From Centroscyllium fabricii (taxonomy: Eukaryota): a DNA stretch of 64,000 nt. The notes below the pieces were generated by a model. It saw only the letters and a program-made list of their open reading frames with translations, was not told where the DNA came from and ran no database searches. Where the stretch lies: the NCBI GenBank assembly GCA_051313645.2, contig JBNRSN020000010.1:2232001-2296000 (forward strand), written 5' to 3'. A program made the translations under genes and the position numbers. This document shows, piece by piece, positions 14,955 to 64,000 of the stretch (position 1 is the stretch's first letter; the number at the start of each line of letters is the position of its first letter).

Positions 14955-16684
14955 ATAGTCACTGCCGTAACTGTAAAGTAGGAAATCTTATATATTTCTG
15001 AACAGACTCAGTACAGTAAACGTACAGCAGGAACAAATGTATACACTGAAAAAATTCAGCGCAGCAACCATGGAGCGGGAAGACATATATACTCTGAATA
15101 GAGTTAGTACAGTAACTGTACCGCAGTAATATATATATATACAGTGAACAGAGTCATTACAATAAATGTACATTAGTAATATAAATATAAATAGAACAGT
15201 GTCAGTATAATAGTGTAGAAATAAAAATATACACTGAAAATAGTCGCTGCATTAATGTTAAAGCAGGGATAAATATATACAATGAACACAGTCAGTGCAG
15301 TGATTGTACAAAAGGGATACACATATACAAGGAACATAGTCACTGCTGTAACTGTATTGCAGGAAATCATATATACACTGAACAGAGTCAGTACAGTAAC
15401 TGTGCAGCAAGAACACATATATACACTGAAAATATTCAGTGCAGTAACCGTACAGCAGGAATACATATATACTCTGAATAGTGTCAGTAGAGTAACTATA
15501 CAGCAGGAATATAAATATAAATTGAACATTAACGCCGCAGTAACTGTACAGAAGGAATACATTTATACACTGAACAGAGTCATCCAGTAACTGAACAGCA
15601 GGAACACATATAGAAACTGAAAAGATTCAGTGCAGTAACCATACAGCAGGAATATATATATACTCGGAATAGTGTTAGTACTGTCACTGTACAGCAGGAA
15701 CACATATATACTGGGAATAGTGTTAGTACTGTCACTGTACAGCAGGAATACATATATACACTGAACAGAGTCAGTGCAGTATCTGTGCAGCAGGATTACA
15801 AGTGTACGTTGAGCAGAGTCGCTACAGTAACTGTAAAGCAGGAAATCATATATACACTGAAAACATTCAGTGCAGTAACCAAACAGCAGGAAGACATATA
15901 TATTCTGAATAGAGTTAATACAGTAACTTTACAGCAGGAAAAAATATACATAAACTGAATATAGTACCGTTACGATGAAGTAGGAATATATATATATATA
16001 TATATATATACTGAACAGACTCAGTGTATTAACTGTACAAAAGGAATATAAATATACACAGTACATATTCACTGCTGTAAGTGTAAACCAGGAATATCTA
16101 TATACACTGAACCGAGTCAGTACAGTAACTGAACAGCAGAAATACTTATCTACCCTGAACAGACTCATTGCCGTAACTGTACACAAGTAATATAAATATT
16201 CATGGAACATAAACGCTGCATTAACTATACGCTAGGAATACATATATATACTGGAAAAAACCAGTGTATCAATCATACAGCAGGACGACATATATTCTGA
16301 ATAGAATTAATACAGTAACTGTACAGCAGGAAAGCTATTATATATACACTAAATAGAATCATTACAATAACTTTTCATGTATATTTATATTCCTGATGTA
16401 CAGAGTCATTACAATAACTGTATAGCAGGAATATAAATATATACGGATAATAGTCACTGCAGTAACTGTAAAGCAGGATATCATATATACACTGAACAGA
16501 GTCAGTACAGTGATTGTACAGCAGGAACACATATATACTCAGAATAATGTTAGTACAATAACTTTAGAGGATGAATACATATATACACTGAACAGAGTCA
16601 GTTAAGTTACTGTACAGGAGGAATATAAATATTCATGGGACCTAAACACTGCGGTAACTGTAGATTAGGAATACATACATACAC

Positions 16685-16991
16685 TGTAAGAGTTCGCAAT
16701 TACCGCGATTCAATAACAGGAGAAAAGCCAGTTTAATTGAACATTTTATTAGACAAAATGGCTGCAACACAGAAAAGGGCTGCGGCTCTTTGGAAGAGAG
16801 AGAGAGAGGGGCCTCTAAGATGGCCAACCGACCCAGTGACCAACTGACCAGAACTTACCAGTACATCTCCCGAATAAACTTAACTGCCATCCAGACAATA
16901 TTATGTATTGGCTTTGTAAAAGCCCGCGAAAACTTGCCAGCACCCAGACATGGAGGCGCTGAGGAATGACACTTCTTGTAAGATTAAACAA
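16685..16991 (-). mobile_element. Probable partial LTR terminating satellite array 1
   Basis: Minus strand ends ...CTCTTACA at the satellite break, with AATAAA (16745-16750) about 60 bp upstream plus CCAAT and GCCATNTT motifs; no second terminus or TSD found, so the right boundary is uncertain. Confidence 0.45.
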
Positions 16992-17496: not shown

Positions 17497-17563
17497 GGTA
17501 TCTGCCGTGGCTCAGTTGGTATCACTCTTGCTGCGAGTCCAAGGTTCTCTGTGTTCTTGGAAC
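17497..17563 (+). mobile_element. 5' tRNA-like head of a SacSINE1-like DeuSINE, split by the LTR element
   Basis: GCCGTGGCTCAGTTGGT A-box; the element continues after the second GGAAC at 21738. Confidence 0.75.
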
Positions 17564-18434
17564 TGTTGTGTATGTGCCTTTTAGTTATTATACTGGGAAC
17601 CGCTATGTGGTGCCACAATACTGTAGTACTTTGGCCAACCACTAGTGTATATAAGTTTGTGCGCGGAACGATATGCTCAGTTTCAGTTATGTTCCATACT
17701 CTGTAATAGAAGAATAAATACCTCCTTGTTTTATACTTTGGAGTCTAGTCCGTTGTTATATGAGACACATAGCATGGACTTAACAATGGTGATGAGGTTG
17801 GTCGAATCTACGGCAGTGTAATCAGTTTACAAGAAAAAAAAAAAAAAATTCTTACCGGCGACCATCGACTACAACGACATACCCTGCACTCCAAAAGTTG
17901 GAGCAGCAGTGATTCTTCAGTGACGCAGAGGGAACAGAGACAGCCAGCACTCCAAAATCGGGAGTGGCGTTGGCACTAGCCACAGAACCAGCTCTTCAAC
18001 ATCGTGGGGAGGAGCATTGGAAATAGCGTCGATGGCAGGAGGTAGCAGAACTCGGGGACCCAGCCAGCAACAGCAGTCAGTCATCGGACATCAACCTCGG
18101 GGCAGGGCCAGTGCTACAGCATCAGTCGGACATCGGACGTCGGCCGCGGGGGCAACCATCAGCGGCAGCAGTCGGACATCGGGCGTCGACAGCGGAGTGT
18201 GAACAGAGGCAGTCGAGCATGGAGGCTGTCGAGGATCAGATTTGGTCCTCCAGCCAAGGGACAATGGGCAAATCCAGGTAGAGCGCAATCCACCCAGCGA
18301 TCGCGGGTTATCGGAAACGCAGCAGGGAAGAAGCAAAAAGGCGGGAAAACACAATTTGGGGCGGGAAAAGCGCCGGAAGAGAAGCAAAAAGGTGGGAAAA
18401 GATGCCATTTTGGACGCCATTGGGAAACGTAACC

Positions 18435-19140
18435 ATGGCAAAATCAGACACATTTGGGGCCTTCCAACTAGAAAAGGAAGACTGGGAGGCATACCTAGAA
18501 TGCTTTGACATCTATTGCCAAGTACAGGCAGTCACTGATGCAAACAAAGCCGGCACCCTACTGAATGCAATGGGGTCTGAAACTTACGGGTTGTTGAAAA
18601 CCCTGGTGTCCCCAGATAAGCCAGTGGACGAAACCCTACTACAGATTATAGACATTTTAAAAGCAAACTTAAACCCCAAACCATCATCATTTATAGCAGA
18701 ACTCTTCAAGTTCTTCAAACGGTACCAACAAAAAGGAGTGTCACAGTCAGAGTACCTAACGGAGCTCAGAAGACTGTCTAAAAATTGGGTATTTGGGGAT
18801 GAACTGCCAAACTACTTAAGGGACAGACTTGTGTGGAATTTTAGATGAATGTACCCAAAATAGACTATTAGCCAAAAAGACGCTCACACTAGAGCAGGCG
18901 ATAGAAATCACTGCAGCACATGAGGCAGCTGCTGTGGGGGCAGAAGAGATAAGGAACAAGGGGATCTACTATGATCCCATGAAATTACAACCAGCACTAA
19001 AAAGTGCTACTGCTGCGGCAAGACGACACACGACCAGAATAATTGATGGGCTAAAGATAAGGATTGTCAACAGTGTGGCAAGATAGGCCATATAGCGGCA
19101 GTTTGCAGATCTGGGAAGCTAACTAAAATATTACAGAAAT
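18435..19140 (+). pseudogene. gag: gag with two CCHC zinc knuckles, frameshifted
   Basis: EDWEAYLECF...LLNAMGSETYGLL...YLTELRRL...LRDRLV/CGI...RLLAKKTLTLEQAIE; knuckles CYCCGKTTHDQNN* (last C lost to a stop) and CQQCGKIGHIAAVC at about 19005-19107. Confidence 0.9.
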
Positions 19141-19269
19141 AGACCAGGTCTAAGAAGGTACACAAACTCTCTGAAGATAGTTCGGGTGACGAATCAGAAA
19201 ATTCAAATAGTGGAGAATGAGGTCTCGAAAGTCTCAAAGTCCACAATATGGTCAATTCCACAGACCGCA

Positions 19270-19580
19270 GTATTATGTGGGTTCCCCTCAAGGTTGCAGG
19301 GGTTGAGTGTCAATGGAATTAGATACGGGGTCAGCCCTCTCTGTTATCAATGAAATGTTTACAGAAAGGCATTCAGAGGGGTGCCTTTAGAAGAATCGGC
19401 AGTTATATTAAAAATATATATGGGACAGAAGTTCCGGACAATGGGCAGACTGCACGCAACAGTTCAATATAAGGACAGGAAAGTAAAGGGACTGTACCTG
19501 TATGCTTCAAAGAGGAGTTCACCACTCCTGGGGCGTGAATGGATAAAACAAATCCATATCGGTTGGAACTCGATCCATGA
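19270..19580 (+). pseudogene. Retroviral-type aspartic protease, frameshifted
   Basis: MELDTGSALSVI (DTG at 19322-19330) and C-terminal LLGREWI motif. Confidence 0.88.
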
Positions 19581-21162
19581 CTTACACATAGAGGGTGAGG
19601 AAAATGATGCAGCCATGTCAGACAGACTGGGTATACACCAGATGCATATTTCCCATCTGACTCAGGGGCTGCTGGAAGCCCGAGACCAAATTGAATTGTT
19701 GTGGACTGCACAAAGTGAGTGGGTTTATCAACACAACCGATCACACTTGAACGGAGCACTTCAGACAACTGAAGGAGAGACTTTGAGTGACATAGAAACA
19801 TAGAAACTAGGAGCAGGAGTAGGCCATTCGGCCCTTCGAGCCTGCTCCGCCATTCAATGAGATCATGGCTGATCATCCAAACCCAACACCCCGCCCCTGC
19901 CCTCTCCCCATATCCCTCGATCCCTATCGAGCCTGCACCGACACATATCCCACCCTATCCCCGTAACCCCACACATTTAATCCCCCTAACACTAAGGGTC
20001 AATTTATCATGGCCAATCAACCTAACCCGCACATCTCTGGACTGTGGGAGGAAACCGGAGCACCCGGAGGAAACCCACGCAGACACGGGGAGAATGTGCA
20101 AACTCCACACAGATAGTACCCGAGGCTGGATTTGAACCCGGGTCTCCAGTGCTGTGAGAAAACAGTGCTAACCGCTGTGCCACTGTGCCGCCGTGACATG
20201 ACCATGGGTGCCGTATTGGCTGAACCAAAAGATGACACGTTGCCTTATCGTGCTGGACTGAGTTACGCACCTCCATCACTGATATCGGCAAGCACCCCAG
20301 ACACACAAAAGGGCTGCAAGGACTTGGCTAACAATACTCAGAGCCCAGTAGTCGACTCTAAATCTGGGAAGAACGTTAATAAAAAGAAAGGTCTTCTAAA
20401 TAACAGTCCTGTGATTTCCTATAGGACTGCTGCTTCAGAAAGGTACTCAGTCCCTGATGGTGGCTCTACTTCAGAAATACTCAAACTTGAATTGAGCGAT
20501 AAGAATGATGTGCAGGACAAGGAGATCAGTTGTCTCCAGATTAGTTTCGAAGATCAAGAGAAATTTCTGCAAGCTGAGCTACAAACCTCCAAAGCTACAG
20601 TGGCCGCATTGCAGGACAGAAATGTGTCACTGGAGGAGATGCACCAGGATCGGGACAAAGAAATGGACCAACTTCAGACTCAGATACAGGAGTTGCGGGA
20701 AAATAACAAAGTACTGCAAGATTACGTGGATGAGGCCAAGGAACAAAATAAGGATCTTCAGACACAGTTGAGCTCCAAAGTAACTGACTATGAGAGCAAG
20801 TTGGAGCAGCTCTCCACCGACATGAAAGAAAAGTGCTTGGTTGCAATAGTCAAGCAGCAAGAGGCTGAAAATAACCTGCTAGCAGTGCAGAAACTTTTTA
20901 AACAGTCAATTGATGAGGTTGATGGACTTCAGGAGGATCTGGCTGTAATGGAGCAGTAGAAAGCGCTATTGTCGGAAGGTAAAGTTGAGGTTGAAATGAA
21001 ACTCGACTGCGTGAATGCTGAACTCGGGAGGTTGGGGTTTTGTTTGGGACAGCTGAGGAGCAAGGCCATCCGCAGTTGATGGACACCGAATGGTGAGGAA
21101 AATATGGCTAACAGATTGCCGATAAAAGCCGACCTCAAAAGCAAAGAATCAACACCATTATA
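19581..21162 (+). pseudogene. Unknown coiled-coil ORF in frame with the protease, interrupted by a SINE and two stops
   Basis: Removing 19794-20199 (SINE plus one TSD) joins ...GETLSD to MTMGAV... in frame; the E/Q/K/L-rich tract LQAELQTSKATVAALQDRNVSLEEM...LQEDLAVMEQ reads on past TAG 20957 to TAG 21160-21162. Confidence 0.7.
19794..20192 (-). mobile_element. HE1-like V-SINE, long-tail type, TSD GTGACAT
   Basis: Reverse complement of the 14554 element; GTGACAT at 19787-19793 and 20193-20199. Confidence 0.94.
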
Positions 21163-21738
21163 GAAAAACTAGAAATTGTTAAATGTAAAAATTGTTAACA
21201 ATGTTAGTGTTCAAGTGTATCGAGTTGATGTACCATGTTGTTAAGAAAGGTACCATGTGACGAAGATTGCAATGTGATAAATGTACGTTAACCATTGTTG
21301 TAATTATGTTATTTCGATTTAGATAAGTTAACATGGAACATTCGAGTTAAAAATATTGCTTGTATGCAAAATGTTATAATGAGTAGAATGGTGTCGAAAA
21401 TTGTTGTAAGAGACTAACTAGCACCGAACAATGTATGTAACAAAAGTTAACTGTTGTACCCCCTTGTGTACTTATCATCGTACCTGTACGATTGAAGTAA
21501 GAAAGGAGGAATGTTGTGTATGTGCCTTTAAGTTATTATACTGGGCACTACTTTATGTGGTGCCACAATACTGTAGTACTTTGGCCAACCACTAGTGTAT
21601 ATAAGTTCATGCGTGGAGCGATATGCTCAGTTTCAGTTACGTTCCATACTCTAATAGAAGAATAAATACCTCCTTGTTTTATACCTTGGAGTCTAGTCCG
21701 TTGTTATATGAGCCACATAGCATGGACTTAACAGGAAC

Positions 21739-22146
21739 CACTCCAGACATTTGAGCACAAAATGCAGGCCGAAAGTCCTCAGTATCTGGACTGAGCACGG
21801 GACTGTGGGAGTTACTGTCTCTTAAGATGAGGCTCAGTCAGCCCTCTCAGGTGGTGGTAAAAGCTCCCCCGGCCACTCTTTGAAGAAGAGCGGGGGGCGG
21901 GAGGGGCAGTTCCAGCCTATATCCTGGCTGATATTTATTCTTCACGCAACATCACTAAAAGAATACAGATAATCTTGTCATTATCTCATTGCTGTTTCTG
22001 GGAGCTTGCTCGCCATAAGTAGTTTGCCGTGTTTCCTACATTCCAACCGTGACTACAGTTTGATAGTAATAAAGTGGTAAAGGGCTCGGGGACAGCCTGA
22101 GTTCAGGAAAGGCGCTGTATAAATTCCAGTCTATTTCTTTCTTTCT
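21739..22146 (+). mobile_element. Body and tail of a SacSINE1-like DeuSINE
   Basis: CACTCCAGA..TTGAGCACAAAAT, GCCCTCTCAGGTGG..GTAAAAG, GAAGAAGAGC, TCATTATC.CATTGCTGTTT.TGGGAGCTTGCT, GTTTCCTACATT.CAAC.GTGACTACA, GAAAGGCGCT.TATAAAT and a (TTTC)n tail match the recalled dogfish SacSINE1 consensus. Confidence 0.82.
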
Positions 22147-22147
22147 A

Positions 22148-22933
22148 GGATGCATTTTGGAAGGACTAACAAGGCAAGGGAATACACAATGAATGCTAAG
22201 ACCCTAGGAAAGACAGAGGATCAGAAGGACCTTGCTGTGCATGTACACAGATCCCTGAAGGCAGCAGGACAGGTAGATAAGGTGGTTAAAAAGGCATATG
22301 GGATACTTGCCTTCATTAGCCGAGGCATAGAATATAAGAGCAGGGAGGTTATGATGGAGCTGTACAAAACGCTGGTAAGGCCACAGCTGGAGTACTGTGT
22401 GCAGTTCTGGTCGCCGCACTATAGGGGGATGTGATTGCTTTGGAGAGGGTGCAGAGGAGATTCACCAGGATGTTACCTGGGCTGGAGTGCTTCAGCTATG
22501 AAGAAAGACTGGACAGGCTGGGGTTGTTTTCCTAAGAGCAGAGAAGGCTGAGGGGGGACCTGATTGAGGTGTACAAAATTATGAGGGGCATAGATAGGGT
22601 GGATAGAAAGGAACTTTTCCCCTTACTGGAGGGGTCAATAACCAGGGGGCATAGTTTCGAGGTAAGGGGCAGGAGGTTTAGAGGGGATTTGAGGAAAACC
22701 TTTTTTCTCAGAGGGTGATTGGAATCTGGAACTCACTGCCTGAAAGGGTGGTAGAGGCAGGAACCCTCACAGCATTCAAGAAGCATTTAGATGAGCACTT
22801 GTAACGCCAAAGCATACAAGGCTACGGACCAAGTGCTGGAAAATGGGATTAGAATAGACAGGGCTTGATGGCCGGCGCGGACACGATGGGCCAAAGGGCC
22901 TCTTTATGTGCTGTCACTCTTTGACTCTATGAC
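22148..22933 (+). mobile_element. 5'-truncated CR1 LINE (3' end)
   Basis: MHFGRTNK...VRPQLEYCVQFWSPHYR; 3' end ACGATGGGCCAAAGGGCCT...GTGCTGT and GACTCTATGAC tail. Confidence 0.93.
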
Positions 22934-23529: not shown

Positions 23530-23789
23530 GAATCTATCCATCGACACACACTATCTTACTGTTAAGTCACACATTCTGTCCATATATACACTACTTTATA
23601 GTTAATACACACGTACACAGTCCATCTACAACTATATTATCGTTACTACGCACACTCTCTATCTATACACTATCTTACTGCTAATACACACACAGAGTGT
23701 TCATCTACACACTATCTTATTCTAAGTAGACACTCACTGTACATCAAAACACTATCTTACTGTTAATACCCACACTCTCTATCCGTCTA
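23530..23789 (+). repeat. Degenerate ~40-bp minisatellite (TCCATCTATACACTATCTTACTGTTAATACACACACTC-like)
   Basis: About six units; continues at 25675-25746; related tracts at about 27500-27770, 28780-29170 and 44220-44490. Confidence 0.8.
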
Positions 23790-25673
23790 TTTTCTTTATT
23801 AGCACCTGGAATGTGGGCATCACTGGCAAGGCCAGAATTTATTGCCCATCCCTAGTTGCCCTTGAGAAGATGGTGATGAGCCGCCTTCTTGAACCGCTGC
23901 AGTGCATGTGGTGAAGGTGCTCCCACAGTGCATGTTAGGGAGGGAGTACCGGAATTCTCACCCAGCGGCGATGAAGAATCGGCCGATATACTTCCAACTC
24001 AGGATGGTGCGTGACTTGGAGGTGGTGGTGTTCCCATGCACCTGCTGCCCCTTGTCCTTCTCGGTGGAAGAGGTCGGGGGTTTGGGAGATACTGCCAAAG
24101 AAGCCTTGGCGAGCTGCTGCAGTGCATCTTGTAGATGGTACACACTGCAGCCACGGTGGTGGAGGGAGTGAATGTTTAGGGTGCTGGCTGGGGTGCCAAT
24201 TGAATGGGCTGCTTTGTCCTGGATGATGTCGAGCTCCTTGAGTGTTGGTGCAGCTGCACTCATCCAGGCAAGTGGAGAGTATTCCCTCACACTCCTGACT
24301 TGTGCCTTGTAGATGGTGGAAAGGCTTTGGGGAGTCAGGAGGTGAGACACTCGCTGCAGAATTCCCAGCCTCTGGCCTGCTCTTGTTGCCACAGTATTTA
24401 CACGGCTGGTCCAGTTATGTTTCTGGTCAATGGTGATCCCCAGGTTGTTGATGGTGGGGGATTCGGCAATGTTAATGTGGTTGAATATCAAGGGGAGGTG
24501 GTTAGACTCTCTCTTGTTGGAGATGGTCATTGCCTGGCATTTGTGTGTCATGAATGTTACCTGCCACTTAGCAGACCAAGCCTGACTGCTGTCCAGATAT
24601 TGCTGCAGGTGGGCACGGATTGCTTCTTTATCTGAGGAGTTGCGAATGGAACTGAACACTGTGCAATCATCAGCAAACATCGCCATTTCTGACCTTATGA
24701 TGGAGGGAAGGTCATTGATGAAGCAGCTGAAGATGCTTAGGCCTAAGACACACAGCCCCAGGAAATCACTTAAGGAGTTCCTCAGGGCAGAGATGATTGG
24801 TCTCCAACAACCACAATCATCTTCCTTTGTGCGAGGTATGACTCCAGCCAGTGGAGAGTTTTCCCCCCTTATTCCCATTTACTTCAATTGTACTCGGGTT
24901 CCTTGATGCCACACTTGATCAAATGCTACCCTGATGTCAAGGGCAGTCACTCTCACCTCACCTCTGGAATTCAACTCTTTTGTTCATGTTAGGACCAAGG
25001 CTGTAATGAGGTCTGGAGCTGAGTGGTCCTGGCAGAACCCAAACTGAGCATCAGTGAGCAGGTTATTGGTGAGTAAGTGCCACTCGATAGCTCTGCCAAT
25101 GACATCTTCCATCAGTTTGCTGATGATTGAGTGTAGACTGATGAGGCGGTAATTGGCTGGATTGGATTTGTCCTCCATTTTGTGGAAAGGACATACCTGG
25201 GCAGTTTTCCACATTGTTAGATAGATGCCAGTGTCGTAGCTGTACTTGAACAGTTTGGCAAAAGGTACAGCTAGTTCTGGAGCACAAATCTTCAGCACGA
25301 TAGCCGGGATATTGTCAGTGCCCATAGGCTTTGCTGTATCCTTTGCTGTATCCAGTGCGCTCAGCCATTTCTTGATATCACATGGAGCGAATCGAATTGG
25401 CTGATGACGGGCTTCTGTGATGTTGGGGACAGGAGAAGGCTGATACGGATCATCCACTTGGCACTTCTGGTGTAAGATGGTTGCAAACCTTGCCTTTTAC
25501 ACTCATGTGCTGGGCTCCACCATCATGGAGGATGGGAATGTTGATGTAGCCGCTTCTTCCTCCAGTTAGTTGTTGAATGGTCCACCACCATTCAGGACTG
25601 GATGTGGCAGGACTGTAGAGCTTTGATCTGATCCGTTGATTGTAGAATCGCTTAGCTCTGTCTATAGCATGCT
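23790..25673 (-). mobile_element. Decayed LINE of the CR1/L2 group (distinct family), RT and 3' UTR
   Basis: NYRLISL, QFGFCQDHSAPDL, FINDLPS...MFADDCTV, YKAQVRSVREYSPLAW; 3' UTR with AATAAA followed by an A-rich end. Confidence 0.9.
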
Positions 25674-52910: not shown

Positions 52911-54118
52911 ATAATTAAAAAAGTCATTAAGGAATCCAATAAATAAGTCAGGAGGAACATCATTACCAAGAGAGTGCTTAGAATGGGGAATGCACCACCA
53001 CTTGGAGTAGTTGAGGCGAATAGCACAGATGCGATAAAAGTGAAGCCAGATAAACACTGATAGAAAGGAACAGAAAGATATGCAAATAGGGCGAGATGAA
53101 GTAAGGTGGGAGCAGGTTCATTCGGAACATAAGCATCGACACACACCCGTTGGGCTGAATGTCCTGTTTCTGTCCGGTTTGTGCTGGAAATTATTTGTAA
53201 TTCTATGTAATACAGCTGATTAAAATTGTGTCCATTAAAACCAGTCTTGTGTTTATTCATCTAATATTCTAATCGCCTATTATTACATAGATTGACACGT
53301 CCACCTCTTCATTCATTTGCCATATATCCGACAATCCACTAATCTGTGAATCATCTGTCCCACTATTCACCCTCCATCCAACCAACCCATGTTCCTTCTA
53401 TTCATTAAAGATCCATTCATACATAAATCCACCTGGTTACCATCAATCTTCTGTGAATCGATACAGTCAACCATTCATTCAACCTTCCAAACATCTGAGC
53501 ACCAATCAACCCTACATCCATCCAATTATCTACCTATCCACCCAATTTCCGTCAGCCCATGCATTGGTCTATCCTTATATCCATTCTTCTGATCATATTA
53601 GTCCATCACCATTCCAAAGCCATGCATCTCCATGGAACTGACAATCCATGTTTCCGTAGGACCATCCACTCAACCTTTCATCCAGCTTTTCTTGATGTTG
53701 TTCCATCTTCCAAACTTCCACTTATCGAGTATTCATTCAATCCACTCATTGAACAATAGTTCCTTAAACCCAGTGCCTATTGAGACATGCATCTCCACTC
53801 CCTCGTTAATTTATCAGCCTTTGGTACATCTATCCATTCATTCATTCATTCAAGGATCCACCCTACGGCCATCCGTTCACTCAGTCTTCCCTCCATCACT
53901 TCAACTGTCAATCGACCCATTCAATAATCTAATCATCCATATAATCAATGTAACTATCGTGCCATCCATCCAATAACCAGTCCTTCAATCATTCCTCCAA
54001 TATTCCATCTGGTCATCCATTCACTTTACTTGCCAACCGTTTATCAATCCAATCTTCCTTGCTCACCTGTTCAATCAACCACCTTTCCACACTTAACCCT
54101 TCAATCCGTCCCTAACCC

Positions 54119-54426
54119 ATCATAAAATCATAGAATTTTACAGCGCAGGGGGCGGCCATTCGGCCCATCTTGTCCATGCAAGCCGACAAAGAGCTATCCA
54201 TCTTAATCCCACTTCCCAGCTCTTGGTCCATAGCCTTGTTGTTTACAACACTTCAAGTGGCCATCCCAGCACTTCTTCAATCTTATGAGAGTTTCTGCCT
54301 CGACCACCCTTTCAGGCAGTGATTTCCAGACCACCACCACCTCCCTCTGGATGAAAATTTCTCCTCAAATCCCCTCTAAACATCGTACCAATTACTTGAC
54401 ATCTATGCCCCCGCGTTATTGACCCC
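54119..54426 (-). mobile_element. CR1 3' fragment similar to 22148-22933
   Basis: ACCACCCTTTCAGGCAGTGA..TCCAGA and CTATGCCCC are reverse complements of segments in 22645-22752; (ATTCTATG)-type tail. Confidence 0.85.
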
Positions 54427-57400
54427 TGATCAACCATTCATCCACTCACGAATTCCTCTATTCATTCGTCCAGGCATCCGTTCAACCAATTTGCGATTGG
54501 TCACTCCCTTCATGCATGCATCCCCTTATCCATTCGACTACCTGTCCATCCCATAATCCCTCTAATCAATAAACAATCCACTCAAACATCCTCTATTCAT
54601 TCTAGTCTGAATCCATAAGCAATCCGTCCTGCATTCATTCACCCCTTCATAAATTCAACCAACTCTCTAACCAACATTCGTTCCAAGATTCCTTCCAACA
54701 CTCAATCTTTCAAGGCTCTGATGTCCAATCATCCAATGTTCCCTAAGGTCATTCATTTATCCATCCATTTCACCATCCATCAAACATATCTTCCGTTCAC
54801 TAATCCATCCATCAATTATTCCTCTATCCATCACCTCAGCCAATCATCCATCCATTCAACACGCCCCATCTATCCCTGCTTCCAAACATCCATTCATCCA
54901 CTCAACCACCTGGACATCCAGCGCTCCCTTCAATCATTCTTCCATCCAGTGAACCAGCCATCCACCCAATTTCCCTTGCGTTCATTCATCCCTTTATCCA
55001 TTCAAATATCGCTCCAGCTCACAATCGCTATAATCAATTACCCATCCACCGAAGCACCTCTACATTTAGCACAATCACTATTTAACTCTTCTCAATCTCT
55101 CATCCATCCATCCAGCATGACCTCTATTCTTTAATTCATCCATGAATATAACCACTTCACTCGCCAACATTCAAACCAATCTGTTCATTCACTGAACTAT
55201 CCCTTCATCCACATTACCTACAATCATCAATCACCCATGGAGCCATCCATTCATCAAGAATTCCCTCCAAGGAATCCATGTAGCCAATTAAACTTCCATT
55301 CATCGAACATTGCATTCGATGATCCACCAAACATTCCAGTCATTTCCAATCATCCAATATTCCTAAATAATTAATAACCCAATCGGTTTATTGAACCAGC
55401 CAAACAGTCTTCTATCCCACCCGCCATCCAAATAAATCATAATCCATCCATCCAACCAATTATCCATTTAGCGCTCCCTCCATTCATTCACGTTGCAATA
55501 CTTCAAACCACCCATGCAAAGAAAGTCACCTCAATTCACTCAACCCTTTATCAATGCAACTGCCTGTCCATCACACAATTCTGACTAATCATGCTTCGCG
55601 TCCACTATCCATCCATCGACCCATTCATCTTCCACTCATTTAGCCACCCACACATCCAACTCTCCCTCCATTCATTCCTCCTTTTAGCAATGACACTGCC
55701 TTTCCACCCAACAATCTCTAATCAGCCAGTCAGTCATTAATCCCTGCATCCATTAAACTACCTATCCATCTCACAATCATTCCAATTAATTTCCCATCCA
55801 CACAAACACCTGTCCAAAACCTATATGTCCTCAGTCTACTCCTAATCCACAGACCATCTATTCTTTAACTCTTCCTTAAATGCGACCACCTCTCCATCCA
55901 ACATTCAAGCGATCATCATTCAATCCATCTAGAGCGACATTCATTCATATTGCCACACGTTAAATCAACCATCCAAAGTCACCTTCACTCATTCATCCCG
56001 TTTTCTTTTCAACTACCTGTCCAATCCAATATTCGGACCAAAAATCCATCCAATTCAACTACATTCATTTATAATTTTATCCAGTAGATTGCCTTTCCAT
56101 CTCAAAATCTCTGAAAAATCTCCCATCTACTCAAATCATCCTTCTATTGGCAATGCTCCATATTCTGTCTGCTCTCAAACCACAGCCCATCAATCCAGCA
56201 TGCCCTCTATTATTTCATCTCTCCCTGCATTAGAACACTCAAGCCAACATTTCCTCCAAACATTCAATCCATCCAATGATTTGCAATAAAATACTCCCTA
56301 TCATTCATTTTTCCATCCATATAAGCATTCATTCAACTTCATCCATTCAACACCTCTTCCATTCAATAGTCTGTCATTAAGCTATCCATTACCTCAACCA
56401 ATCACGCATCGATCCATTTTCTCCCATCCAACAATCCCCCCAACCATCCATCAATCTAACTAGTCTTCTATCACACCCTCCCTCCAAACATACCGCAATC
56501 CATCCATTCAAAGAGTTATCCAATCAAATCTCCCTCCAGTCATTCACCATCGGTATTCTTCAAACCACTCCTCCATGGAAAGTCCACTTTATTCATTCAT
56601 CCATTTGTTAATTAAACTATCTTTCCATCCCAAAAGTCGGACCAATAATCCCTCCATTAAAATAACCATCCATGCAAATCATCCTAAATGCATTTATCTT
56701 CCATTCACTCAACCAACCTCTCATTCAACTTCCACACCATTCTTTCTTCCATTTATCAATTAACCTGCTCTCCATCTAACAAACACTCTGATCAGCCTCC
56801 CAACCACCCCTCTGTTTAGTCATCCCGACATCCATTAAACTACATATCCCTCAAAATTCCTCTAATGAAACTACCATCCACAAAAACACATCTCTATCCA
56901 AATCTCTCTTCATTCTGCTTTCAATCGACAACTCGTCCATTCAGCATGCCCTTTATTCTTTTCCTCCATAAATTCTACGGCCTCTCCATCCAACATTACC
57001 ACCAATCATCATTCAATCCATTCAAAATTCCTTCCAAACATCAAATAATCCAACCAATAAACCTTCCATTCATCCAATAATTCCTCTAATCATGAACAGA
57101 TCCATCCATTGAAACTATCATTTTTTCAACATTGCCTCCAATCATAATTCAGTCCATCCACTGATTAACAATCTAATAGTCCCTACAATTATTCATTTAT
57201 CCAACCATTTTTGCATTAATTACGCCTCTCACCAATTCCTAACCTATTCTATTCAATAATCCATTATTCATCTATCCATCACCTCCACGAATCATCCATC
57301 CGTTCAACACCACGCCATCCACCTCTCCTTCCAAACATCCATCATGCCGTTCCAACAGCTGGACCTCCAGCATTCCCTCCATTCATTCATTGGACAACAC

Positions 57401-60367
57401 ATCTATCCACCTCTCCCACCAAATATCCACAATTTATCCATCGAAACAATTATCCATTCAACACTCCCTCCATTCATTCACATCTTTAAGATACCCATCC
57501 GATCCCCGATATTCATTCATCCCTTTATCAATTCAAATAAATTTCCATCCAAAATCTGGACCAATAATCCATCTAATTCAACTACATATCCATCCAGCTC
57601 TCCCTACATTTATTGATCTTCCACTCATTAAAATAGCCACTCGTCCAACCTCCATTCATTCATCCGTTTAGCAGCTGAACTGCCTTTCCACCCAACAGTC
57701 TCAATGATCAACCACTCATCCATCCAATGCTCCCTTCATTCAATCATCCCTACATTGTATTCATAGCAAATCCATCTCACAATCCCTCAATCACTATCTA
57801 ATCCACTCAACCACCACTCTATATAAACCTCTCTATTCATTCTACTCTCAATGCAATGATCATCCACCCAGCTCACCCTCTATTTTTCAGCCCTCCATAA
57901 ATACAACAAATTCTCAATTGAACAAACCTTCCACTGCCTGGCTATCCCACGATTTCCATCAATCGTCCATCCATCCAACTCTCGCTCCATACATTCATCT
58001 CTCCAATCATTTAACCACCCATCCATCCATCTCCCACTCCGTTTATTCATCCCTTTTTCAGATCAGTTATATTTCCATCCAACAATCGCTATGATATCCG
58101 ACCCAAGCATCCATCACGCCCATCATTCAATCATCCCTCCATCCATTCAACTGCATATCCCTCACAATCCCATCAATCAATCTTCCATTCACACAAACAC
58201 CTATCCATCCAGAATCTCTATCAATTATACACTCGTTGGAAATCCATTCCATCCAGCGTGCCCTTGATTCATTCCTGCCTCCATAAATTCAACCACCTCT
58301 CCATGCATCATTCCCTCCAATCATTAATTAACCCATCAACAGAACCCTCCGTTCATCCAGTGTTGCCTCCAACGATCAACCAATCTATCCAGTAATTGTG
58401 CAGTAATCCAACACTCCCTTCCATCATTCATTTAGCCATCATTACATTTGTTCACACAATCATTCGATGACTCATCCATCCCACACCCGTGCGATTGAAT
58501 AATAATTCAATTATTCATCCTTTCATCACAACAACAACTCATTGAACAACTCTCCGACCAGCAAACCCTCAAAAATCCACCCATCCATTACACCACCTGG
58601 AAATAAAGCCCTCCCTTTCAATTATTCATCCTCATCTATCACTCCATCGATCTATCCAATCAGCCATCCACCCAATCAAGCTTCTATCCAACACTCTCGA
58701 TAAACATCCCACAGTCCATCAGTTCAGGAAATTCGCCATTATTCTCTCCCTCCATCGTTTCAAATCAGCAATGATTAAACCACCAATCTTTTCAACGTCT
58801 CTTCGATTACTTTATTCCTGTATCAATTAAACTGCCTGCCCATCACAGAATCCCTCTGATCAACCACCAATCCATCCATGCAACACTCTTTATTCATTTA
58901 TCCATTTAAACAAATCTCCACCACTCACTCCCTGAATGTATTCATCCTTTATCCATTCAACTGCCTACCCATCTCACAATCCCTGTAATCAATCACACAT
59001 TCACTCAACCTCCTCTCCTTCCAACGCACTCACAATTGAGTCTATTCTCAAACCACAGCTCATCAATCTAGTGCACCCTCTATTCTTTTATCCCTATATA
59101 TCCTGCCACAACTCCATCCAACATTACCTCCAATATTAATTCAGTCAATCCAAAATGCATTCCAAACATCAATCGAGCAGCAAACCTTCCATTCGTCTAA
59201 CAATGCCTCCAATAATAAATCAATTCATCCATTGAAACGTCCATTTATTCAACATTGCCTCCAATCCTCACTCAGTCCATCCACTGGTTATCAATAATGC
59301 AGTAGCCCCTTCAATTCTTCATTATTCCATCGAATTATGCATTCGTTCAAACTCTCATCCATTCCAAACCTATTCTATTAAATAATCCATCGTTTATCTA
59401 TCCATCACCTACACCAATCATCCATCCATTCATCATGGTGCCATCCAGCACTCCTTCCATACACCTATCTAGCCACTCAAACCTGGCCATCCAGCGCTCC
59501 CTTCAATAATTCATCCATCCATTGGATAGCTCATCTATCCCCCTCTCCCTCCAAACATCCCACAATCCATTCATTGAAACAATTATCCATTCAGCTCTCC
59601 CTCCATTCATTCACATCGCCACACTTTAAACCACTCATTCAATGACACCTCCACTCATTCACCCCTTTATTTATCAACTACCTTTCCATCCTGAAATTCA
59701 GCCCAATAATCCATTCAATCAAATAAATATCCATCCAACTCTCACTACATACATTTAAATTCCACTCCCATTCAACTTAAACGCCATTCATTCACTTATC
59801 AGTTAAACAGCCTTTCTATCAAACAATCATTCTGGTCAAAGACCCAACCATCCATCACTCCCTTCATTCATTCATTCATTCCCAAATCCTATAAACGATA
59901 TTTCCATCTACAATCGCTCGAATAAATAACACATTTATTCAAAAAACCCTCTCCAAAACCTTTCTATTCATTCTACTCTCAATCCTGTGATCACCTACCC
60001 TGCGCACACTCTATAGTTTCAGCCTTCCATAAATTCATCCACTTCTCAATTCAACAATCCTTCAAATCATCGATCAGTCCTTACACAGAACCCATCGTTC
60101 AACAAGCTCTCCAATCATCAATTGACTTACAATCATACAACACGCTTTAATTTATAATTATTCATTCAAATACACATCCATGAAATACCCAGAAATTCAA
60201 TAATCATTCCATTATTCATTTTTTTTTTCTTTCCATTATTCATCTATTCATCAAATCAACAAATCATCCATTCAACAACTCCCCATTCAACATTTCTTCC
60301 AAACATCTGTCCATCCAAGCATGCACCTTGCCATCCAATACTCCCTTCAATTATTCTTGTATCAATT

Positions 60368-60677
60368 GGGCGGCACGGTGGCATAGTGGTTAGCACTGTT
60401 GCCTCAGAGCGCTAGGGGCCTGGTTTCAAATCCGGCATCGGGTACTATCTGTGTGGAGTTTGCACATTCTCCCCATGTCTGCTAGGCTTTCCTCCGGGGG
60501 CTCCGGTTTACTCCCACAGTCAAAAAGATGTGCGGGTTACGTTGATTGGACATGATAAATTGACCCTTCGTGTTAGGGGGATTAAATATGTGGGGTTAAG
60601 GGGATAGGGTGGGATATGTGTCAGTGCAGGCTCGATAGGCCGAAATGAACTCTCTCTGCACTGTAGGGGTTCTATGA
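60368..60677 (+). mobile_element. HE1-like V-SINE, short classical tail
   Basis: GGGCGGCACGGTGG head, V-domain, ends GGCTCGATAGGCCGAAATGAACTCTCTCTGCACTGTAGGGGTTCTATGA. Confidence 0.92.
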
Positions 60678-63600
60678 TTGAGCCACCATCTATTCATCAC
60701 ACTGTTAAACAATCTACACACCCATCCATTTACTCAGCTATGGTCTCTATTCTTTAATCCCGCAAGGATTGATCCACCTCTCCATCCAACATTGCCTCCG
60801 ATCATCTCAATACACTGATTTACAATCATCCAATACTCCCTGCAATCACTAATTTCTTCATCAATTTATGCATTCATTAAAACGCCCGCCCATTCAAAAC
60901 CTGTTTTATTGAATAATCCATCATTCATTTATCCATCGCCTCCACCAGTCATCCATCAATTCAACAGTGATCCATTCAGCACTCCTTCCAAATTCCCATC
61001 AATCAGAATGCCATCCCTTCAATCATTCATTCATTGAAACACCTATCCATCAGTCCGTCACCTCTCCAAACATTCATCCAACTAACCAGTCTTCGAAGCA
61101 AACTTCCATTCTAATATTCCATAATTCATCCATTCAAACAGTTATCCATTCAACTGGCCCTCCATTCATTGACATCGCCACACTTTGCATTACCCAGTAA
61201 TCTAAGGTCCCCTTCATTCGTTAATCCATTCATTCAACGACCTGTCCATCCCACAAATTTGATCAAGCTTCCACCCATTCAAATTCTGACCAATCGAACA
61301 CTCCCTCCACTCTACTCATTCAACAACCGGTTTATCTCCCATTCTGTTATGTCCTCCCTTTATCATTTCTGCAACGTTTACATCCAACATAATCTGATAT
61401 CCGACCCACACATCCAGCACTCTCTTCATTCATCCTTTCACTGCATTTCCATCTCACAATTCCTCTAATAAAACTCCCAGCCACACAAATACCTGTATCA
61501 AAATCGCTGTATTAATTATGCTCTCTATCGACAACTAATCCTTTCAGCATGCCCTTGATTCTTTCATCACTCCATAACATGAACCACCTCACCATCCAGC
61601 ACTCCTTCCAAACATCCATATAGCTATTCAAACACCTAGTACTCTTGCACTACCTTCGATCATTTATCCATCCATTAGAAAATGAATCTATCTAACCCTC
61701 CATCCAAACATCCCACAATCAATCCATCGAACCAATTATCCAGTCAACTCTCCCTCCATTCAGTCACATCGCCACTCTGTAAATCACCCCTCCATTGATT
61801 CATCCCTTTACCATTTAAACTGCATTCCCATCCAGAAATTCTGCCCAATAATCCATTCAAATTACCACTCATTCAACTCTCCCTACATGTATTTACATCC
61901 AATTAATTCAACCGCCCTCTGATCCAACTTCCACACCATGTATTAATCCATTTATCAATTAACCTGCCTTTCTACCCAACATTCTCACCAATCAACCAGC
62001 CAAAAAACCATCACACTTCATTATTTCATCCCTACATCCATTAAACTACATGCACATCTCACATCCCTCTAATCAATAGTTCATCCACATCAACACTTCT
62101 TTATATAAAACGTCTATATTCATTCTACTCTAAATCCAATGATCATCCACCCAGCACACACACTATCCATTCAAATCTACCTCCATTTATTCATCATGTT
62201 ATTACTCAAACCACTCATCCAACGAAAGTCCCCTTTACACATTCATCCCTTTATCAATTCAACTACCTTTCCATCCCAAAGTTCTTACCAATAATCTGTC
62301 CAATGATATAACCATCCACCCAAATTTTCCAACATGCATTTATCATTCACCCATTCAACCACTCTCTCCTTCAACTTCTATACCATTCATTCATCTGTTT
62401 ATCAATTAACCTGCCTTTCTATCCAGCAATTTCTCTGCCCAACCACCGAAAATCCATACGACCATTATTCATACATCCCTACATTCATTCAACTAAATCT
62501 CCCTCTCACAATCCCTCCCATCAACACAAACACCTCTCTATCAAAATCACTATGCATTCTACTCTCAATCTACATCTCATCCATCCATCCAGCAGGTATT
62601 TATTTAACCCTCCATGAATTCGAATGACTTTCCTCCCAACATTGCCTCCAATAATCATTCAAACCATCCAAAACTCCAACCAAACATCAATCGATGCAAT
62701 CATTAAATCTTTCATTCATCCAACAGTGCCTTCAGTCATCAATAAATCCATCCATTGAAACTTCCATTTATTCAACATTGCCTCCATTCATCATTAAGTC
62801 CACCACTGGTTATCAATAATCCAATACTCGCGACAATTATTCATTCTTTCATCGATGTATGTGTTCATTCAAATTCTCATCCATTCAAAACCTATTCTAT
62901 TCAACAATCCACCATGCATCGATCCAGCACCTTCACCAGTCATCGATCCATTCAACACCACACCATCAAGCACTCTTTCCAAACATCCATCTAGCCACTC
63001 AAACACCTGGCCCTCCAATGCACCCTTCAATCATTCCGGCATCCATTGGAAAACACATTTATCCATCGCTCCCGCCAATATCCCACAATCCATCCATAGA
63101 ACCAATTATCCATTTAACTCTACCTCCATTCATTCACATCACCATTCTTTCAACCACCCATCCAATGTCCCCTCCATTCATTCCTGTCCATTCAACTACT
63201 TGTCCCTCCAGTTATTCGGACCAATAATCCAACCATTATGCATACAAATAAATTTAACTCTCCCTCCATTCTTTGACATTGCCACACTTTGAAGCTCCTA
63301 AACTAAATTCCCCATCATTCATTAATCCCTATATTAATTCAACTTCCTTTCATTGCAAAAAAGTTGATCTATCTTCCATCCATTCAACATCCCGTTCTGC
63401 CATTTCTTCCTCCATTTAATCATCTCGACTCATTAAAGCACCAACTCATCTCCCACTCCGTTAATCCATCCCTTTATCATTTCAACTATCGTTCCATCCA
63501 ATAATCCACGTGATCACCAATCCTATCAAAATTCTCTCCCTTCCTTCATGCATCCCTACATCCATTTAACTGCATATCCCTCCCACATTCCCTCTTCAAT

Positions 63601-64000
63601 CTCCCATCCACACAAACACCTCTCTATCCAAACCTCTCTATGCATTCAACTCTCAATCGACAACCCGTAGATCCAGGACGCCATTTATTATTTCATCCTT
63701 CAATTATGAATTCCCGAATCCACAGACCTAGCTAGTCATTCAGCATTGGCTCAACGATCAGCCGAGCCATTGAGTTATTTCATTCAAACTCCCGCCAATT
63801 CAAAACCTCTTATTGAATAATCCATCATTCATCTATCTATCACCTCCACCAGTCATCTATCAATTCAACAATGATCTATCCAGCACTCCTTCCAAATAGC
63901 CATCAATCAGACAGCCACCCCTTCAATCATTCATCCATCCATTGAACCACCCATCTATCTGTCCGTCAATCCCGCAAACATTCATTCAACCAGTCTAAGG

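Follow-up and report, generated by a model that had tools for sequence, protein, structure and literature searches.

Spliced host exons in the place of pol in an amplified gag-protease retrotransposon family of Centroscyllium fabricii

A 64,000-nucleotide stretch of the Centroscyllium fabricii genome (assembly GCA_051313645.2, contig JBNRSN020000010.1, positions 2,232,001 to 2,296,000 of the forward strand; hereafter the window, from whose first letter all coordinates are counted) contains at 17564-21733 what its sequence identifies as a Mag-type Gypsy element with gag and protease (PR) and without reverse transcriptase (RT), RNase H and integrase. In the position of pol it carries, in frame behind the protease, pieces of host genes including seven spliced exons of the coiled-coil gene HMMR (RHAMM), and we consider this anatomy and the capture of the cargo from host mRNA practically certain. 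In our interpretation, to which we assign a probability of roughly 45%, the cargo is a new, selected module replacing Pol, which would have been rebuilt repeatedly from host coil exons (ANKRD26-like, ERC and HMMR), moved among at least three gag-PR chassis and amplified to thousands of copies, and which the element would need in order to out-compete its helper.

Anatomy of the element and host origin of its cargo

The element is bounded by two long terminal repeats (LTRs) of 222 bp each with TG...CA termini (17564-17785 and 21512-21733), which are 95% identical across aligned columns (Kimura two-parameter distance, K2P, 0.052), and is flanked by an exact 5-bp target-site duplication (TSD), GGAAC (17559-17563 and 21734-21738). 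The primer-binding site (PBS, 17787-17797) is of the type found in the autonomous partner family described below, and the polypurine tract (PPT, 21500-21511) directly precedes the 3' LTR. All parts lie on the forward strand except where stated. The Mag-type gag (18436-19256) has two CCHC knuckles (19005-19046 and 19065-19106) and is followed by an aspartic protease (19257-19545, start approximate) with DTG at 19322-19330, which terminates at LLGREW; all these parts had been named in the original prediction. The closest database matches of Gag-PR are fish K02A2.6-like (Mag-type) polyproteins (44-46%), and the features of the Mag clade, namely TG...CA LTRs, a 5-bp TSD, PBS, PPT, two adjacent CCHC knuckles and a single frame, are present. 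Mag elements have two adjacent zinc knuckles and encode gag-pol as one polyprotein frame with no frameshift (PMC5408684, excerpt). In contrast to that clade, the enzymes are missing, as had been predicted: the Mag polyprotein P0004 aligns to the window element only up to about residue 392, and no sequence for RT, RNase H or integrase lies beyond.

Behind the protease follow linker X (19546-19736, about 64 aa), a 28-nt ANKRD26/CCDC144C-like remnant (19737-19764; 93% over 28 nt in the reference copy, E 2e-5 in a search within 60 kb), a captured piece of a ZNF608 exon (19781-20491, about 305 nt with two in-frame deletions), the HMMR coiled-coil stalk (20487-21027) and a C-terminal tail (21028-21182) with a basic end motif. 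Linker X and the end motif are common to this family (A) and two sister families (B and C, see below), and the source of the tail was not found. For linker X, no origin emerged from near-length, representative and Pfam searches, and a search of longer proteins gave 0 of 13 candidates; its best value in an Atlas search was 0.87, which is lead level only. Rfam and tRNA scans gave no matches. The ZNF608 piece is interrupted by a short interspersed element (SINE; 19794-20199, reverse strand, labelled by sequence appearance), a real insertion as originally proposed: its 406 nt include one copy of a 7-bp duplication, and it is absent from the same site in the other 29 loci compared.

The window copy is a dead element. 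Its gag-PR contains three stops and four frameshifts, including a frameshift in the protease. The open frame proposed behind the protease is confirmed (from 19354 to the SINE, and again over 20201-20956). The TAG at 20957, taken to be a mutated CAG, is private to this copy, and the other copies lack the presumed C. The TGA at 21078, taken to be a CGA transition, and the frame end at 21162 both proved to be products of a private frameshift at about 21039; in the family the frame runs on to about 21180.

With regard to the origin of the cargo, the coil matches two shark HMMR proteins at 60-62% in a protein search. A single HMMR locus was found in the 7.2-Gb genome, which the homologues of its genes place among the cartilaginous fishes, and seven consecutive exons of this locus, with AG/GT ends, are 76-92% identical to the element. 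They are joined exactly at all six junctions (about 20522, 20634, 20679, 20753, 20840 and 20941), with all six introns gone, and the only deletion in the HMMR piece is 21 nt, i.e. one heptad. These DNA matches to host exons rule out that the Pfam HMMR_N match is generic coiled-coil noise. The ZNF608 piece is 82% identical to one host exon, while the paralogue gives no match; since it lies within a single exon, it is uninformative on intron loss. Host donor genes, which had been called for, are thus located in the same genome for both pieces, and of the proposal of a novel or host-captured coil the second half holds and the first does not. Nor is the entire stretch behind the protease a coiled coil, as had been suggested, given that about 100 aa of it are the Pro/Gly-rich ZNF608 piece. 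At the ZNF608-HMMR junction, the only one resolved for microhomology, a purine-rich 7-nt word is present in both donors, as RT template switching predicts (PMC5131818, excerpt). Capture probably took place by such switching onto co-packaged host mRNAs.

Families A, B and C and their autonomous relatives

A DNA search of the genome with the cargo as query gave 2,435 first-look candidates for family A, a figure not equal to copy number. The 40 candidates scored were all 89-94% identical, the window copy itself excepted, and two whole LTRs were present in 22 of the 40 loci retrieved over their full length, 19 of these 22 having exact TSDs, two a TSD with one mismatch and one no TSD. LTR K2P in these 22 copies has a median of 0.046 (range 0.027-0.075). 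HMMR was present in 37 and ZNF608 in all 40 loci; pol was absent from every two-LTR copy of family A (0/22), as it was from those of families B (0/13) and C (0/7; 0/42 in total), and was present in 11/11 of the partner family. The 46-copy set excludes three near-identical duplicates of L003 as well as short loci for which a longer fetch of the same place was at hand. Copies L003 to L006, found on two contigs, hardly differ from one another and share one SINE-bounded truncation; they are probably a segmental duplication, not separate insertions.

One natural copy is stop-free over 812 codons across gag, PR and cargo, the frame extending about 415 aa beyond PR; unbroken copies number 3 of 36 scorable in both halves, and 15 of 38 in the cargo. 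The copy trees are star-like, which indicates a past burst of family A, with no sign of present activity. Many copies with TSDs of their own, identical junctions and family-wide absence of pol support the mobilised non-autonomous lineage that had been postulated. A simple pol deletion in a single copy is ruled out by the many two-LTR copies that share the architecture. No Gag-PR-coil protein surfaced in protein searches of other species, a weak negative since transposons are poorly annotated.

A search for an autonomous partner with the same LTR had also been called for, and one with a related LTR does exist. With RT as the query, autonomous Mag-type elements were recovered. Compared copy by copy, their gag-PR shows 90-92% identity, which extends as far as the PR terminus, and their pol matches P0004 at 54-63% (pairwise matches; the window element itself has no RT). 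The partner and family A have PBS, PPT and LTR type in common; the partner LTR has 83% identity with the 225-bp LTR subfamily to which the window copy belongs and 94-96% with another subfamily of 213 bp, and its K2P (median 0.059, n = 11 of 21 loci) overlaps in range with that of family A. In the gag tree, A nests among partner copies. Comparison of the commonest codons of gag-PR gave proportions of nonsynonymous and synonymous differences (pN and pS) of 0.015 and 0.083, respectively, and 14 of the 33 differences fall in the last 28 codons of PR, a concentration that likely marks a recombination boundary. As judged by these sequence relationships, the autonomous sister family is very probably the helper of family A. 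HMMR or ZNF608 pieces occur in 0 of the 21 autonomous loci, which rules out the cargo as the ordinary downstream frame of an autonomous family. A younger autonomous Mag-type family (L115, L117-L119, L121), with LTRs 97-99.5% identical and many open frames of 1323 aa, is, by the gag tree, partner to none of the three families.

Family B was found by a search with the host ZNF608 exon and has a ZNF608-HMMR junction identical to that of A. This ZNF608-HMMR part is closer to the host than that of A (92-94%); the LTR of B is different and its gag-PR only 65-70% like that of A. Family B carries an additional coil that passes Pfam Cast (ERC/ELKS), so that its cargo consists of ERC/CAST, ZNF608 and HMMR. 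Family C, found by a search with Pfam Cast (2,219 first-look candidates), has the same linker X and basic tail as A and B; its cargo is an ANKRD26/CCDC144C-like piece and a longer ERC/CAST piece, with neither ZNF608 nor HMMR in any of 20 loci. A host locus that matches the ANKRD26-like piece at 85-93%, with one exact splice junction in family C, was identified as the donor, and the remnants of this piece measure 45 nt in B and 28 nt in A. Three of the four donors are therefore found in the genome (HMMR, ZNF608 and ANKRD26-like) and ERC/CAST is known by its Pfam match alone: no ERC donor exons were seen in 200 kb of C700 and 140 kb of C435, which are only part of two large genes. Three of the four are coiled-coil proteins. 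A PDB search gave no relatives for the cargo of either B or C. CCDC144C-family matches away from the main donor (G000:C1033:5927282, C789:5038981 and C711:300846827), two of them with stops, may be retrocopies or other captured pieces.

Families B and C are separate gag clades, with median LTR K2P of 0.034 (13 of 20 loci) and 0.044 (7 of 20), respectively, some pair ends being uncertain. The nested ANKRD26-like remnants suggest the order C-like ancestor, B, A. In the first step ZNF608-HMMR would have replaced the ERC end, and in the second ERC would have been deleted and gag-PR and LTR swapped for those of a new helper, with the boundary close to the PR terminus. The divergence of the cargo from the host (synonymous divergence, dS, 0.32 for HMMR) far exceeds that of gag-PR from the helper, suggesting that the cargo is older than its present gag-PR chassis.

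Selection on the cargo and its possible function

The evidence that the frame has been preserved across the three families is strong. No column of A, B or C has a stop as its commonest codon, which confirms the predicted family-wide open frame, and family-level indels are multiples of three in nine of nine cases, compared with 6 of 33 private indels. The 105 fixed nonsynonymous changes would be expected to come with about 12 disruptions; none was observed. This bears on the idea that host sequence merely shields the element from small-RNA silencing and that the protein is irrelevant. Such camouflage has been proposed for plant transposable elements (PMC13317346, excerpt), and ZNF608 and HMMR are conserved genes. 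However, it would make a reading frame unnecessary, yet all junctions and family-level indels are in frame, and DNA identity to the host has fallen in family A to the 76-92% given above; we regard it as very improbable.

At the level of residues the evidence for selection is mixed. With CpG-context changes tallied separately, gag in A has 13 nonsynonymous and 16 synonymous shared changes versus 267 and 100 private ones (p = 0.0026, relative omega 0.30, non-CpG variants), and the HMMR piece 14 and 17 versus 155 and 47 (p = 0.0008, relative omega 0.25, non-CpG); after removal of host and B alleles the latter gives 10/10 versus 143/44 (p = 0.016). None of the 39 changed residues in the HMMR piece of A is to proline. 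For PR and linker X the contrast of shared and private changes is not significant. The ZNF608 piece of A, with 21/1 shared versus 103/32 private changes (p = 0.047, uncorrected), has an excess of amino-acid changes. In this same piece (19781-20491), 22 of 23 shared changes were nonsynonymous and fixed changes relative to the host numbered 26.5 nonsynonymous versus 5.5 synonymous, possibly reflecting positive selection. The ratio of nonsynonymous to synonymous change below 1 that had been anticipated is hence obtained for the HMMR piece of family A but not for the ZNF608 piece or for families B and C.

The selected-module interpretation can be given a mechanism. A single frame would comprise gag, protease, linker, ZNF608 piece, spliced HMMR stalk and tail, and given the single polyprotein of Mag elements the cargo would therefore accompany every Gag made. 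The element would supply its own Gag-PR, and RT and integrase would likely come, within mixed particles, from the polyprotein of the helper. The HMMR piece is predicted to pair Gag-PR molecules, aiding protease activation or assembly. In retroviruses such help is usually ascribed to downstream Pol domains. Modelled as a parallel in-register homodimer, the HMMR piece scored 0.49 (best of three controls 0.00), with runs agreeing in at least 98% of contacts and a predicted local distance difference test (pLDDT) of at least 87. In calibration the dimer mark was obtained for 21/30 solved homodimers vs 0/23 single chains from microbes and for 17/29 vs 0/30 from eukaryotes, with 7/16 in animals and 1/7 only where no older relative exists. 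The HMMR stalk that contains the captured piece is described as a potential dimerisation domain (PMC7226759, excerpt). We give an even chance to the coil standing in for the lost Pol as a dimerising part of Gag-PR.

A number of observations weigh against the selected-module interpretation. When only stops are counted, the expected disruptions fall to 3.7 (12/341 private changes, P about 0.025); the private frameshift rate is possibly inflated by assembly indel errors, and copies were chosen by similarity, not randomly. Omega exceeds 1 for the ZNF608 piece, which is no coil, and no residue-level signal was seen in B (shared 37/8, private 249/89) or C (shared 13/6, private 220/98). Omega for HMMR between host and A is 0.42 (p = 0.002), but 0.63 (p = 0.07) with transition weighting; between A and B it is 0.53 or 0.78, not significant, and for the B-C cargo 0.80 or 1.16. 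The dimer score may echo generic coiled-coil memory, and no partner for B or C appeared among the fetched loci.

Alternatively, the cargo may be tolerated filler, selected only for an open frame after PR, by which the element would avoid long-3'-untranslated-region RNA decay or maintain RNA length. Coils and disordered pieces would then prevail as tolerant of cutting and fusing, and GAA/AAG/CAG-rich RNA would give the microhomology for template switches. We give this explanation substantial though minority weight: frame preservation is the strongest signal, omega is about 1 for the B-C cargo and the tail, cargo is freely exchanged and variable in length, coil structure is lacking in one donor piece, and the ZNF608-HMMR junction word is purine-rich. 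On the other hand, the purifying signal of A's HMMR piece equals that of gag, its sole deletion is exactly one heptad (a single event), and the uncorrected ZNF608 excess of shared amino-acid changes is odd for inert sequence.

The cargo could instead act on the host, the released coil binding HMMR, ERC, ANKRD26 or their partners and thereby directing particles to the germ-cell spindle or centrosome, or acting as a dominant negative. ANKRD26 is a centriolar protein and ERC1 occurs at microtubule sites of the cell cortex, and a heptad-preserving stalk piece could pair with a host protein. HMMR is a spindle protein relevant to the gonad, with microtubule-binding sites at residues 40-59 and 76-90 and a CHICA site at 365-546 (PMC7226759, excerpt). 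The captured segment, however, corresponds to about residues 175-345 (approximate numbering), between these mapped sites; the HMMR piece of A has drifted to 77% identity with the host, with 25 element-side vs 6 host-side changes, and family C is about equally widespread without HMMR. Host targeting thus appears unlikely.

Relation to known systems and other features of the window

The process of capture is known; the combination found here differs, with pol replaced in frame, four donors (three of them coils), three families and exchange of chassis in a vertebrate. Bs1 of maize is a low-copy element. It is an LTR element with segments of three host genes in a chimeric frame (PMC13317346, excerpt), and so resembles the present families in joining several host-gene segments in one frame; unlike Bs1, these have host pieces in frame behind a conserved gag-PR, at the position of pol, in an animal, and comprise three families with different cargo, each widely amplified. 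LTR-mediated retrocopies of animals are intronless partial mRNAs between LTR sequence, with microhomology at switch points and multi-gene chimeras; they are in sense orientation, often in frame and some re-mobilised, and the loci are few and young, with loss-of-function changes in 14 of the 21 older ones (Tan et al. 2016, PMC5131818, excerpt). Loss of introns is common to both (6/6 HMMR junctions and the one ANKRD26-like junction in C), but here the chimera is a long-lived high-copy family with its frame kept and serial exchange of cargo.

Gag-protease elements such as wheat RLG_Sabrina_SA (PMC9744471) and TR-GAG (PMC6022998) have Gag and protease only, reach high copy number, depend on autonomous partners and can switch partner via LTR exchange, according to excerpts of both sources. 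The present families are like them by domain rule only, with full cis signals and many insertions, but have a frame running far past PR; spliced host exons behind the protease do not figure in the excerpted descriptions of those plant elements. In effect, Bs1-like capture operates here on a chassis resembling Sabrina. The comparison can be extended to viruses, although these differ in several respects. In acutely transforming retroviruses, gag-onc fusions are helper-dependent and have pol replaced by spliced host sequence. Family A resembles them in its likely helper dependence and in host sequence fused to gag in pol's place, and differs in the absence of env, in germ-line spread, in a cargo of structural pieces of coil where the viruses carry signalling domains, and in showing no evidence of a growth effect.

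The claim of an undescribed system is accordingly to be narrowed, since multi-gene mRNA capture by LTR elements was already known; the family itself is undescribed in the literature searched by topic (including ZNF608 + HMMR + retrotransposon), with repeat databases, subscription journals and supplements lying outside that search. Only a few cases are published in which animal LTR elements captured host mRNA; copy numbers are low and decay is the usual outcome. Here, captured exons make up the lasting coding content of three widespread families, whose frame has survived four captures and several changes of chassis. As a rare and well-replicated case, these families allow one to ask whether host parts can be assembled by a selfish element into a new protein for its own use, and which structural role Pol has in the assembly of particles. 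In addition, many partial copies of HMMR, ZNF608, ERC and ANKRD26-like sequence in this genome belong to transposons as cargo; annotation could mistake them for expanded gene families, and small RNAs directed at the donor genes could arise from them.

Elsewhere in the window, a degenerate Gypsy pol remnant at 3-1208 (26% to P0004 residues 744-1170) is unrelated to the element. Degenerate tandem arrays with periods of 48 bp and about 40 bp lie at 16000-16740 and 23548-23790, respectively, and a frame at 22123-22500 resembles what we take to be the end of the RT of a CR1-type long interspersed element. The region 54000-64000 shows extreme negative GC skew (-0.3 to -0.74) and is probably a low-complexity repeat.

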